Both the position numbers and the translations under genes were made by a program. From Pseudomonadota bacterium (lineage in GTDB: Bacteria; Pseudomonadota; Gammaproteobacteria; Steroidobacterales; GCA-2729495), in NCBI GenBank assembly GCA_030836925.1, contig JAUPLK010000001.1, forward strand, positions 1-27,018: DNA of 27,018 bases, written 5' to 3'. The first letter of the stretch is position 1; every line of letters starts with the position of its first letter. Below, in pieces: positions 16-6,706 of the stretch. The notes under the pieces were generated by a model. The model had not been told where the DNA came from and ran no database searches. It saw only the letters and a program-made list of their open reading frames with translations.

Positions 16-1074
16 CTAATTCGCCGGCACCCGTCGCCTGGTCTCGGAAGGCGTCTCACCAAAACGCGCGCGGTAGCACTTGGCGAACTTGCCGAGGTGA
101 TTGAAGCCGCAAGCCAGCGCGACATCCGTCACGCTGCGCCCGCCGACCGCACCGGCTGCCAGCCCCTGGTGTGCCAGGTCCAGTCGGTGGTCGCGCAGAT
201 ACTCCATCGGTGTCGTATGCCGGTAGCGCCGGAATCCGGCCTGCAGGGTTCTTTCGCTAACGCCCGCAATCCCGGCCAGGTCGCGCAGCGTAATGGGCTG
301 GTCGGCATTGCCCATGATGTAGTGCTCGACCGTGCGGATGTAGACCGGTGCCGGACCGGTGCGCCCGGCATCAAGTGACTCGCTGTAGGTGTGCGGCAGC
401 TCCGTCATCACCAGGCTGATGAGCGTTCGTTCCAGCTGGCGGCACACGGTCGGATTGCTGACGATGCCCGCCTCGCGCTGTTCAAACTCCCCGCACAGGA
501 AGTGCAGGAAGCGCCGCAGTCCCGGTGCGTTGCTGTTTGCCGGCCCGGTTCCGGGTCCGGTGCCTGGATCGGCGGGCGGCGCAAAGTGCAGGGGCGCTGA
601 AGCCGGCTGCCCGGTGGTCTCTTCCAGCCAGGCGCGCAGCGGCGCTGCGGGTATGCGCAGTGTCAGGTTCACTTCGTCGGCGAGGAAACGCATGGTCGCC
701 GGCCCGGTCGGGTTCATGGCCCGGATGATCTGGGGGTTCAGTGCTCCGGTGTGGCCGTCCTGGCTGAGGGTACCGGCACCGTGCAGCAGCACGAGAAAGA
801 GGTAGGAATCATCCGGGTGCGCTTCGATCTGCACGGCAGCGCCGTAGTGCAGGGCGTGAATCGACACCTGACCGAGGCTGGCACTGCAGTGGCGAAAGGC
901 CACCAGCGGGCGCCGCGCCGTGGGTATGACCGAGTGCGGCCACAGGAATCTGGACAGGTGATCGCGGGCCGCCAGCAGGTCGGCGGTTTCCAGTACCAGC
1001 TGGCCGGGCAAGGGCATGCGGGCCGGTACCGCCGGCTGCAAACGGGCTGAAAACGCGTGTGTGGTGTCGTCCAT
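16..1074 (-). CDS. AraC/XylS family transcriptional regulator (AraC_binding_2-type N-terminal domain + C-terminal double HTH), 352 aa
   Basis: C-terminal AraC signature ITLRDLAGIAGVSERTLQAGF...VTDVALACGFNHLGKFAKCYRARFGETPSET. GAGG SD-like motif upstream of the ATG. Divergent from the acyl-CoA dehydrogenase. Confidence 0.93.
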   Translation of the reverse strand: MDDTTHAFSARLQPAVPARMPLPGQLVLETADLLAARDHLSRFLWPHSVIPTARRPLVAFRHCSASLGQVSIHALHYGAAVQIEAHPDDSYLFLVLLHGAGTLSQDGHTGALNPQIIRAMNPTGPATMRFLADEVNLTLRIPAAPLRAWLEETTGQPASAPLHFAPPADPGTGPGTGPANSNAPGLRRFLHFLCGEFEQREAGIVSNPTVCRQLERTLISLVMTELPHTYSESLDAGRTGPAPVYIRTVEHYIMGNADQPITLRDLAGIAGVSERTLQAGFRRYRHTTPMEYLRDHRLDLAHQGLAAGAVGGRSVTDVALACGFNHLGKFAKCYRARFGETPSETRRRVPAN

Positions 1075-4781: not shown

Positions 4782-4805
4782 CAGCTGCCGGTTGCGTCCG
4801 GCCCG

Positions 4806-5468
4806 TCAGCGCCGGTCCATGCGTTTCACGCCACTGTCCTCGGCCAGAAGAATCACGTCGGCTGGCCGGTTGGCAAACAGGCCGACGGTCACGATGCCGG
4901 GGACCTGGTTGAAACGGCTTTCGAACTCGACCGGGTTGCTGATCTGCAGGTCATGCACATCGAGGATGTGATTGCCGTTGTCGGTGACGAAGTTCTCCCG
5001 CCAGATGGGCTGGCCGCGCACCTTGAGGAACTGGCGGGCGACCCAGGTTCTCGCCATCGGAATCACTTCTACCGGCAGGGGGAACTGGCCGAGGGTGGCG
5101 ACCCACTTTGACTGGTCGATGATGCAGACGAATTTGCGCGAGGCGGCGGCGAGGATTTTTTCGCGTGTCAGTGCGCCGCCACCGCCCTTGATCAGATGGA
5201 AGTGCTTGTTCGCCTCATCCGCGCCGTCTACATAGAGATCCGGATCGCCCGCATCCTCGAGTTCGCTGACCGTCAGTCCCCTGGCGCGCAGCCGTGCTTC
5301 CGTGGCCCTGGAGCTGGCGACGATGGCGGCGAGGTCATCGCGATGGCGGACCAGTTCATCGATGAAGAAATTGACGGTGGAGCCGGTACCCACGCCAAGT
5401 GTCATGCCGGGCTTGATGAAGTCGAGGGCGGCCCGTGCGGCTTGTTGCTTTCTGGCGGCCTGATCCAT
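4806..5468 (-). CDS. rpiA: Ribose-5-phosphate isomerase A, 220 aa
   Basis: LGVGTGSTVNFFI, DLYVDGADE, IKGGGGALTREKI, PLPVEVIP, VTDNGNHILD. ATG at 5468 with GGAG upstream. Confidence 0.98.
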   Translation of the reverse strand: MDQAARKQQAARAALDFIKPGMTLGVGTGSTVNFFIDELVRHRDDLAAIVASSRATEARLRARGLTVSELEDAGDPDLYVDGADEANKHFHLIKGGGGALTREKILAAASRKFVCIIDQSKWVATLGQFPLPVEVIPMARTWVARQFLKVRGQPIWRENFVTDNGNHILDVHDLQISNPVEFESRFNQVPGIVTVGLFANRPADVILLAEDSGVKRMDRR

Positions 5469-5495
5469 GTACGTCTCCGCAGCTGTTGCGGGGAG

Positions 5496-5501
5496 ATTAT
5501 A
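5496..5501 (-). promoter_or_regulatory. -10 element (TATAAT) for rpiA
   Basis: Perfect TATAAT on the minus strand 27 nt upstream of the rpiA ATG, just downstream of a terminator. -35 not clear. Confidence 0.55.
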
Positions 5502-5526
5502 GGTACGCCGTGCGGGGAAGGGATAC

Positions 5527-5554
5527 AAAAAAAAGTGCCCGCCGAAGCGGGCAC
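5527..5554 (-). terminator. Rho-independent terminator with a C(UUCG)G tetraloop, closing the small-ORF transcript
   Basis: Minus strand GTGCCCGC-TTCG-GCGGGCAC-TTTTTTTT. Confidence 0.93.
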
Positions 5555-5569
5555 CGATTTTCGTGAGTC

Positions 5570-5615
5570 ATCTCCTGTCGGAGATCGGCCAGAAATCTTT
5601 TCAGATTTCTGGCCG
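5570..5615 (-). repeat. Two abutting perfect inverted repeats giving GNRA-capped RNA hairpins on the minus strand
   Basis: CGGCCAGAAATCT-GAAA-AGATTTCTGGCCG (13 bp, 5586-5615) directly followed by ATCTCC-GACA-GGAGAT (6 bp, 5570-5585). Confidence 0.85.
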
Positions 5616-5626
5616 GCGTCATGCGA

Positions 5627-5713
5627 CTAACGCTTTTTCTTTGCGGCCTTTTTCTTGGCCTTCTTCTTGGTCTTGGGAGCAACTTTTTTCTTGGAAGCTT
5701 TCTTCGTAGCCAT
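5627..5713 (-). CDS. Small Lys/Ala-rich basic protein, 28 aa (MATKKASKKKVAPKTKKKAKKKAAKKKR); histone-H1-tail-like composition, function unknown
   Basis: ATG at 5713 with GGAG SD at normal spacing, mixed AAG/AAA Lys codons, TAG stop, own candidate promoter and terminator. The ORF track shows it only as the tail of a 69-aa ORF. Confidence 0.7.
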   Translation of the reverse strand: MATKKASKKKVAPKTKKKAKKKAAKKKR

Positions 5714-5747
5714 AGTTTCAGTCTCCGTGTCGAGGTAGACGGGGCTG

Positions 5748-5779
5748 AGTATATACAAGAGTTTGCAGAATTCCAGCAA
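5748..5779 (-). promoter_or_regulatory. Candidate sigma70 promoter for the small basic ORF (TTGCTG ... TATATACT)
   Basis: TATACT at 5753-5748, or TATATA at 5755-5750 with TTGCTG 18 nt upstream. AT-rich patch in GC-rich DNA. Confidence 0.45.
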
Positions 5780-5848
5780 CCGGGGTGATTTGGTTCTCAT
5801 TCGGGTCACGGGGTGTTTCGTCTGCGCGACACCCATCGAGACGGATTT

Positions 5849-6463
5849 TCACTCCGTTCGTGTGCCGAAACGGCAACTCAAAGTGCCTTCATCGGTCACG
5901 ACTGCTTCGAGTTTGACGTCGTGTTTCTCGTGCGGAACACCGCTGATCTGCTGAAATGCATAAGCCAGTCCGATGAAGTGCGGCCGACGACAGTGCCTGC
6001 GTTGCGCAAGAAAGGCGAGCGTTCGGTCGTAGTAACCACCGCCCATGCCAAGCCGGTAGCCGTCTGCATCGAAGCCCAGCAGCGGTGCAAGGATGACATC
6101 CATCTCGCGTGCGCTGCGCCAGTCATCATCACTGCAGACCGGTTCGGCGATGCCGAAGCGATTGCTGGCCAGCAGGCTGTCAGCTGCAAAGGGAGCGAAG
6201 CGCAGTTCGCTGCCGACCACCACCGGAAGAAAGACTTCTCGTCCGCGTCGCCATGCCGCGCTGATCACGGGTGTGCAGTCGAGCTCACCGGATACCGGTA
6301 AATACAGGGCCAGGCGCCTGCTGCGCGCGAGGACCGGCAAGCGCCAGATCCTGGCGGCAACCCGCATGGCGGCCTGCTCCATCTGTGCCGGGGTCAATGC
6401 CCGGCGTTGTGCCAGCAGAAGCTGGCGGTGCTGTGATCTGGAAAGTGGTTTGCCGTTTGTCAT
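5849..6463 (-). CDS. ygfA: 5-formyltetrahydrofolate cyclo-ligase, 204 aa
   Basis: LALYLPVSGELDC, DVILAPLLGFDADGYRLGMGGGYYDRTL, HDVKLEAVVTD. Canonical position directly after 6S RNA. ATG at 6463 chosen because the longer ORF start lies inside the 6S RNA. Confidence 0.96.
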   Translation of the reverse strand: MTNGKPLSRSQHRQLLLAQRRALTPAQMEQAAMRVAARIWRLPVLARSRRLALYLPVSGELDCTPVISAAWRRGREVFLPVVVGSELRFAPFAADSLLASNRFGIAEPVCSDDDWRSAREMDVILAPLLGFDADGYRLGMGGGYYDRTLAFLAQRRHCRRPHFIGLAYAFQQISGVPHEKHDVKLEAVVTDEGTLSCRFGTRTE

Positions 6464-6475
6464 GGCGGGGAAGGT

Positions 6476-6664
6476 GGTCCCTCCCACCTGTGCCGGTGCA
6501 GCCTGCTGCTCACCGACCGGGAGCATCAGGTGGAATCAAATGCGGCAGAGAAGGCTTCCCGCACGAGGCGGTCATGCACAAACTACCGACAACCAGCGAT
6601 TCCGAAAGCGCGATTAAGGGTCGAGAGACCAATCAAGCCGCTGTCGAACACCGCAGGAGGGACC
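6476..6664 (-). ncRNA. ssrS: 6S RNA (about 189 nt)
   Basis: Conserved zapA-ssrS-ygfA position. Terminal pairing GGTCCCTCC/GGAGGGACC. 6S-like segments GTGTTCG..AGCGG, GCATG, GAAGCCTT, CAGGCTGC. TATAAT just upstream. Ends approximate. Confidence 0.9.
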
Positions 6665-6670
6665 GGTTCC

Positions 6671-6676
6671 ATTATA
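6671..6676 (-). promoter_or_regulatory. -10 element (TATAAT) of the 6S RNA promoter
   Basis: Perfect TATAAT 6 nt before the predicted 6S 5' end. Confidence 0.75.
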
Positions 6677-6706
6677 GGCACAGACCCGGATGAAAAATGT
6701 GACGTG

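Follow-up and report, generated by a model that had tools for sequence, protein, structure and literature searches.

A comparison of the interval between ygfA and rpiA in related genomes indicates that a 28-codon, lysine-rich frame on its minus strand is a genuine, transcribed and mis-annotated protein-coding gene. The frame lies in the window, i.e. the whole stretch of 27,018 nucleotides that was analysed. As judged from its locus and from a phylogeny of the flanking genes, its 28-aa product is an orthologue of the 64–203-aa Lys/Arg/Ala/Thr-repeat proteins that relatives encode at the same locus, and an evolutionarily reduced one. The peptide would be a disordered polycation that acts by unspecific electrostatic binding to DNA or to polyanions in general, a reading to which we give a probability of roughly 0.55. 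This reading fits because charge density, termini and expression signals are conserved while the length floats tenfold and no domain is present. The promoter, the abundance, the binding target and the mechanism are the parts of the model that we infer.

A lysine-rich gene of 28 codons

The peptide (5713..5627, minus strand) contains 15 Lys and one Arg, a single Pro and neither Asp nor Glu. This composition and the coordinates, first given in a model's reading of the letters without database searches (the sequence-only reading), were verified. The host assembly (2.0 Mb, 79% complete) has 63.7% GC, and Lys makes up about 2.1% of its long ORFs. Translated in six frames, the entire assembly contains just two more segments of comparable basicity, which inspection by eye assigns to ribosomal protein S21 and to the C-terminal tail of topoisomerase I. 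The 28-codon frame is thus not a chance product of composition. The longest A run in the ORF is 6. The alternation of AAG and AAA, which had been taken as an argument against a poly-A slippage tract, is true but says less than implied, since the ratio of 10:5 merely equals the 68% AAG of the genome.

Upstream of the gene lies ygfA, encoding 5-formyltetrahydrofolate cyclo-ligase, and downstream lies rpiA. A 6S RNA is found nearby at 6662-6477 (Rfam, 68.8 bits), and all of these neighbours are as originally described. The stationary-phase link that had been drawn from the 6S RNA is not retained here, as the usual ssrS-ygfA neighbourhood is all that it was drawn from. To be noted, the 6S RNA gene (6477-6662, minus strand) and the longest ygfA frame (ORF 5849-6526, minus strand) overlap by the 50 nt at the start of the latter. 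Translation of ygfA therefore probably begins at a later codon, around 6463, in keeping with an ssrS-ygfA operon.

With positions 5400-5900 as BLAST query against 40 related genomes, a match is obtained in 22 of the 24 same-genus genomes. In the more distant ones it spans only ~5791-5525, which is the unit itself with the flanking genes excluded. A frame of 22-37 codons is observed in all 20 same-genus loci first fetched and likewise in those fetched afterwards. The ends of these short forms are fixed, with MATKK at the start and AAKKKR at the finish (AAKKR in one), and all length differences among them are in frame. As evidence, the open frame and the in-frame indels are weakened because A/G-rich DNA rarely has stops and AAG repeats slip by whole codons. 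Since these arguments alone are weaker than they appear, the coding case rests on the fixed ATG, Shine-Dalgarno (SD) sequence and stop, which all relatives retain, and on the excess of third-position variation. In a codon alignment of 19 distinct sequences the variable columns are distributed as 11/14/24 over codon positions 1/2/3, and AAA/AAG changes occur in seven of the 13 invariant Lys columns of the same-genus codon alignment. The two comparisons that had been proposed as checks on the gene, for a conserved frame with its SD in the ygfA-rpiA intervals of relatives and for synonymous-biased changes, therefore both came out positive, the former in every same-genus locus fetched.

Many relatives have an in-frame stop 2-8 codons 5' of the ATG, or no upstream start, and the sole common upstream "starts" are TTGs within the promoter boxes. 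Because there is no conserved upstream in-frame start, the start of the 28-codon frame is the conserved one. A 69-aa gene model was rejected as an over-extension on account of these upstream stops and missing starts. Exactly this 69-aa product is present in the public protein collection on 34 contigs, unnamed, which is the extension that annotators had been predicted to call; the 28-aa product is absent from the same collection. A length of 87 nt is below common gene-caller cut-offs, and gene callers miss or mis-extend this lysine-rich gene. The features of the unit are collected in Table 1.

Table 1. Features of the lysine-rich unit and of the rpiA upstream region in the window.
Feature	Position	Strand	Remarks
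TATAAT box between terminator and rpiA (ATG 5468)	5496..5501	-	window's subclade only
Intrinsic terminator	5527..5555	-	GGTGCCCGC, loop TTCG, GCGGGCAC, then T8
3'-UTR hairpin 2	5570..5585	-	6-bp stem, GACA loop; from the fold
3'-UTR hairpin 1	5586..5615	-	13-bp stem, GAAA loop; from the fold
Coding sequence, polycationic peptide	5627..5713	-	ATG 5713-5711, TAG 5629-5627 included; 22-37 aa conserved
5' leader	5714..5744	-	conserved block GACACGGAGACT at 5731-5720, containing SD GGAG 5726-5723
Conserved upstream block, putative promoter	5745..5780	-	near-invariant in ~20 same-genus loci

Long orthologues and the shrinkage of the gene

In sister families of the same uncultured gammaproteobacterial order, BLAST finds loci with ORFs of 100-160 aa that consist nearly entirely of K, R, A, T, S and V. 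The parts flanking these ORFs are as in the window: the upstream block CTGGAA..TATATACTC, the GACACGGAGACT leader and the GTGCCCGC..GCGGGCAC-T8 terminator. An exact-pattern scan for the leader, performed on one genome per prokaryote species, shows the pattern in 81 species, with an ORF of 22-203 aa and 48-78% K+R behind it. The scan fixes the leader by construction, and the BLAST-found loci alone are independent evidence of leader conservation. All 81 species are uncultured Gammaproteobacteria, which their depositors labelled Woeseiaceae, Chromatiales or Candidatus Rariloculaceae.

Synteny is strict. In essentially all 109 loci, including the window, ygfA is found upstream and rpiA downstream on the same strand, and zapA is found further upstream of ygfA wherever the fetched DNA extends that far; the 6S RNA was confirmed at the window's locus only. 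Long and short forms have a common N-terminus, MA-T/S/K-K/R-K..S-K/R-K-K. The C-terminus is basic in most members and reads K/R-K-K-R in the short forms and in some long ones. Family members have more than 48% K+R and most have no acidic residues. The window's gene agrees with this family in position, in flanking blocks, and in termini and composition. The long forms are built from (A/T/V)KKK or KRKT tetramers; in one 203-aa form a 48-nt unit is repeated 9.2 times with 97% identity, and in the window's gene 2.5 copies of a 12-nt unit are left. We argue homology from synteny, shared non-coding blocks and termini because sequence and profile searches gave nothing.

Two irregularities are observed among the loci. 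The gap from ygfA to the Lys gene is ~600-700 nt and not ~130 nt in about half of the long-form loci (e.g. L038, L040, L049, L064), so an extra gene or element is inserted there in some families. In a long-read assembly (locus L051, OY969712.1, around 3418) the Lys-rich frame breaks after 21 codons, which is probably a homopolymer or repeat sequencing error and not a real pseudogene.

A maximum-likelihood tree was calculated from concatenated RpiA and YgfA (62 rows). The short forms make up one clade on this tree: those of 35-37 aa branch at or next to its base, and those of 22-32 aa are nested within it. Forms of 64-203 aa occupy the sister clade of this group as well as the remaining half of the tree. 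Since the short forms are one clade among long forms, the shrinkage is derived. A 22-aa form, MAAKKKAAKKK.., is also found in another family of the order (L149, G063:C19:21301-22331, positions 743-830, plus strand). A -10 box can still be recognised at its gene, whereas leader and terminator differ in sequence; this family, at least, shrank the gene independently. The 27-aa form at locus L048 may be another independent shrinkage. No long paralogue is found elsewhere in the window's own genome or in five near-complete genomes of the genus. When the 1 kb ahead of rpiA was surveyed in 59 further families of the class, these showed no Lys-rich frame, and the sole match is a same-order genome with the independent 22-aa form.

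With lengths running from 203 down to 22 residues at a single orthologous locus, nature has in effect carried out a deletion series on a histone-H1-like protein. The outcome suggests that a short polycationic stretch is enough for the function, and it provides a minimal peptide that can be tested. What is novel here is this orthologous series, which shows one origin of such peptides. A broader proposal can be made with considerable reserve, and we think it somewhat doubtful: oligolysine peptides of ~20-30 residues might be a widespread and overlooked class of abundant bacterial polycations, genetically encoded counterparts of protamines or polyamines; they would arise when an H1-like repeat protein of 100-200 aa is whittled to its two termini with promoter, leader and terminator kept. 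If this is true, ~15 positive charges suffice for the cellular function, and the leader together with the SD-like 3' hairpin may feed back on the gene's own translation.

Probable promoter, RNA elements and transcription

The upstream block, of 35 nt, contains TTGCTG (5779-5774) and TATATA/TATACT (5755-5748), followed by a GC-rich stretch, CAGCCCC, and it is recognisable in the BLAST-found loci of other families. It is a probable promoter, as judged by its conservation. The candidate promoter of the sequence-only reading (5748-5779) coincides with this block, but the sigma-70 consensus scan is silent there. By eye, sigma-32, sigma-E and sigma-S consensus sequences fit only partially. Sigma-54 was ruled out by eye from the GG..GC spacing.

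The leader, of 30 nt, exceeds the coding part in conservation and is unpaired in the centroid fold. Its GGAG, already named as the SD, is present 9 nt ahead of the ATG, and the conserved 12-mer around it also precedes the long orthologues, both at the BLAST-found loci and in the 81 species of the pattern scan. Behind the stop codon, hairpin 1 shows compensatory changes at no fewer than five stem positions across the genus, and the stem of hairpin 2 varies among relatives yet stays paired (CUCC/GGAG, CUUC/GAAG, CCUC/GAGG). The unit ends with the strong terminator that had been predicted, ~70 nt past the stop. It has a 9-bp GC stem (5555-5534), a UUCG loop and eight T down to 5527; the stem sequence is invariant in the genus and is kept after the long orthologues of other families.

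The arms of hairpin 2 are anti-SD-like (AUCUCC; CCUC in relatives) and SD-like (GGAGAU; GAGG), and the minimum-energy fold shows the 5' arm of this hairpin base-paired to the SD region of the gene itself (CGGAGA). Relatives in which the SD is GAGGA have CCUCG..GAGG in hairpin 2. Both sites (5570-5585 and 5720-5731) also fit a loose CsrA-type A(N)GGA motif. This pairing could be a feedback or titration element, or a coincidence.

Conservation of this kind could be expected if the unit were mainly a small RNA, e.g. a protein-titrating or base-pairing one, with an incidental frame. The leader and the 3' hairpins are conserved as much as the coding part or more, hairpin 1 covaries, the fold z-score of the unit is -5.8, and the best hit on the correct strand among the RNA families of Rfam 15 is rsmX, which the unit resembles weakly, with 20.9 bits where the gathering score is 56. 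No Rfam family reaches its threshold for the unit, and a small RNA would not explain why every relative retains the ATG, SD and stop and third-position variation is in excess, nor why 200-codon orthologues keep the same termini. We consider an incidental frame extremely unlikely and retain the protein-coding reading.

A transcript between 5750 and 5527 was the test that had been set in advance for the gene. Contigs of four RNA-labelled runs were aligned to 4800-6700, two of them filed as true metatranscriptomes (X12 and X14). In X12 a contig matches 5555-5721, and in X14 contigs match 5548-5652, 5562-5652 and 5623-5706. The 5548-5652 contig has five mismatches and the three others have none. 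The one further match is a fifth, foreign contig that overlaps the Lys-rich part by 33 nt. Within 4800-6700 the two metatranscriptomes have no contig on rpiA, ygfA or the 6S RNA. The other two RNA-labelled runs cover the flanks as well and may contain DNA. In an index search, about 17 metatranscriptome runs from at least nine studies contain 17-61% of the sampled words of the 224-nt unit; they come from river, sediment, soil, biofilm, wastewater, sludge and bioreactor. All of this RNA evidence consists of assembled contigs of mixed communities, which give only approximate ends and depths; the unit is identical in close relatives, and some carry-over of DNA is possible. Within these limits the contigs at 5548-5721 pass the test: a short transcript is present, and it is probably abundant. 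In this widespread group of uncultured Gammaproteobacteria from sediment, soil and wastewater, few features of the locus are as conserved as the lysine-rich gene or, apparently, as strongly transcribed.

The unit had been described as an independent transcription unit. Its own conserved upstream block, its terminator and the short transcript agree with this, but in many relatives rpiA depends on read-through. In many short- and long-form relatives (e.g. L008, L013, L016, L025, L040, L073) the rpiA start is only 6-20 nt past the T tract. There, rpiA would be transcribed by read-through or from further upstream because there is no room for a promoter of its own. Rather than standing fully apart, the unit is more aptly seen as a first cistron that is strongly expressed and ends in an internal terminator. 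A comparable layout is known from rpsU-dnaG, where an internal terminator separates a small basic gene from the weakly expressed gene behind it.

The same arrangement could also arise if the ORF were a leader peptide whose translation responds to the supply of Lys-tRNA, or stalls on Lys runs, and in this way governs the terminator and with it rpiA. The gene is always directly upstream of rpiA on the same strand with the terminator between them, and the short distance from the T tract to rpiA in many relatives makes rpiA read-through-dependent there. We regard such an attenuator as very improbable because the long orthologues use the same leader and terminator and leader peptides are not 100-200 aa, because ~70 nt with two stable hairpins separate the stop from the terminator, because the fold consists of three independent hairpins with no alternative anti-terminator pairing with the terminator arm, and because rpiA is not a lysine-pathway gene. 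Furthermore, the window's subclade has gained a TATAAT box for rpiA.

Proposed function and comparison with known polycations

We propose that the conserved upstream block, as the probable promoter, gives rise to a transcript of ~220 nt. It would begin with an unstructured leader, continue with the 28 codons and carry at its 3' end two hairpins that stabilise it, followed by the strong terminator. The encoded peptide would be an intrinsically disordered oligocation with a charge of about +16. This reduced orthologue would act as the long Lys/Arg/Ala/Thr-repeat proteins do, by electrostatic binding and charge neutralisation of a polyanion. Its most probable target would be chromosomal DNA, which it may coat or compact in the manner of the histone H1 tail, Hc2 and protamines, with RNA and polyphosphate as possible alternative or additional targets. 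A small fraction of the transcripts would pass the terminator into rpiA, which is the only visible route to rpiA in many relatives.

Database searches do not place the peptide in any named family, and the sequence-only reading had not recognised it as any of the proteins that it named for comparison. No Pfam or NCBIfam match at E<=10 is obtained for the 28-aa peptide and three long orthologues, a PDB sequence search has no match for the peptide family, and Rfam is likewise without a match. A word-seeded HMMER search with a 105-aa orthologue returned none of 8000 scored candidates at E<=0.001, because composition correction removes the signal. Neither HMM nor sequence searches link the family to Hc2, AlgP, H1 or any other family, and the resemblance to these proteins is compositional. 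Feature-based look-alikes are unnamed clusters, a few of which carry Pfam HC2. In the literature we found no description of a K/R-repeat family at the ygfA-rpiA locus.

Fish protamines have ~30 aa and ~20 positive charges and compact DNA. They are similar in size to the 28-aa peptide, and they share with it and with the C-terminal tail of histone H1 more than 50% basic residues, disorder and an expected charge-neutralising binding to DNA, by analogy only; unlike the peptide, protamines are Arg-rich and eukaryotic. Linker histone H1 differs in its globular winged-helix domain (PF00538), which is absent here and for which a 28-aa low-complexity peptide has no room.

Among bacterial parallels, those studied best are Hc2 and AlgP. 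Hc2 (HctB, PF07382) is a chlamydial histone H1-like protein, which condenses DNA and varies between 165 and 237 aa through lysine-rich repeats (PMC2848022). Like Hc2, the ygfA-rpiA family is rich in Lys, Arg and Ala, of low complexity and without acidic residues, and its length varies by tandem lysine-rich repeats over 22-203 aa, a feature displayed by the long orthologues. Unlike Hc2, neither the peptide nor the three long orthologues match PF07382, and the repeats are tetramers where those of Hc2 are pentamers. The family also belongs to another phylum and another locus, and even the shortest Hc2 exceeds the form in the window in length, the overall factor being 6-8. DNA condensation is a demonstrated property of Hc2 and a predicted one of the ygfA-rpiA family. 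The comparison with the histone H1 tail and Hc2 that was made at the outset for the peptide is strengthened by the 64-203-aa orthologues. By analogy, we infer that the peptide may work like an H1-tail or Hc2-type protein, but it cannot be shown to belong to those families.

A polycation binds polyphosphate as readily as DNA, and the protein family might bind polyphosphate granules rather than DNA. The precedent is AlgP, a histone H1-like protein of Pseudomonas aeruginosa with Lys-rich repeats, which acts on polyphosphate granule spacing (PMC9239181), so that a protein of this kind may have polyphosphate as well as DNA for a target. AlgP and BpH1 of Bordetella are, like the ygfA-rpiA family, proteobacterial Lys/Ala-rich repeat proteins of variable length, but they have no detectable sequence relationship to it. 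AlgP has KPAA repeats behind a structured N-terminal part; the ygfA-rpiA family has no such repeats and no structured domain, with 0-1 Pro per short peptide. Nor is there any link to ppk or ppx at the locus, where the neighbours are ygfA and rpiA in all loci. We therefore consider polyphosphate as the main partner improbable and keep to unspecific electrostatic binding with DNA as the first target.

The small size, the extreme basicity and the apparently abundant transcription would also suit a ribosome- or RNA-associated tiny protein like bTHX, bS22, bL37 or Sra, expressed in step with growth. The small ribosomal proteins bTHX, bS22, bL37 and bL36 have 20-40 aa, are highly basic and are easily missed by gene callers. 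The GC-rich stretch that follows the -10 box is typical of growth-rate-controlled promoters, and it fits a role on RNA or the ribosome about as well as one in the nucleoid. Moreover, the strong conservation of the leader resembles that in autoregulated ribosomal-protein mRNAs, and the gene layout recalls that of rpsU-dnaG. However, the ribosomal option, which the sequence-only reading had also offered, fits badly with the tenfold length range: ribosomal proteins keep their length and sequence, whereas the orthologues vary from 22 to 203 aa through recent tandem repeats. No match to any ribosomal protein is found in Pfam, NCBIfam or the PDB, and the gene is found in one order only. A ribosomal role thus seems unlikely to us, though it ranks next after the polycation reading.

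A further lysine-rich sequence is encoded in the window's own genome. Contig C342 has, from ~5578 onward on the plus strand, an 860-aa frame that by eye resembles topoisomerase I and has a Lys/Ala-rich tail, ..KKVVKKAAKKAARK... This tail is longer in other families of the order, with KKKAKKKT repeats (also at L027 and L031), and it is the source of off-target BLAST matches. It carries the same kind of AKK repeats as the peptide, so the motif is used there on a DNA enzyme.
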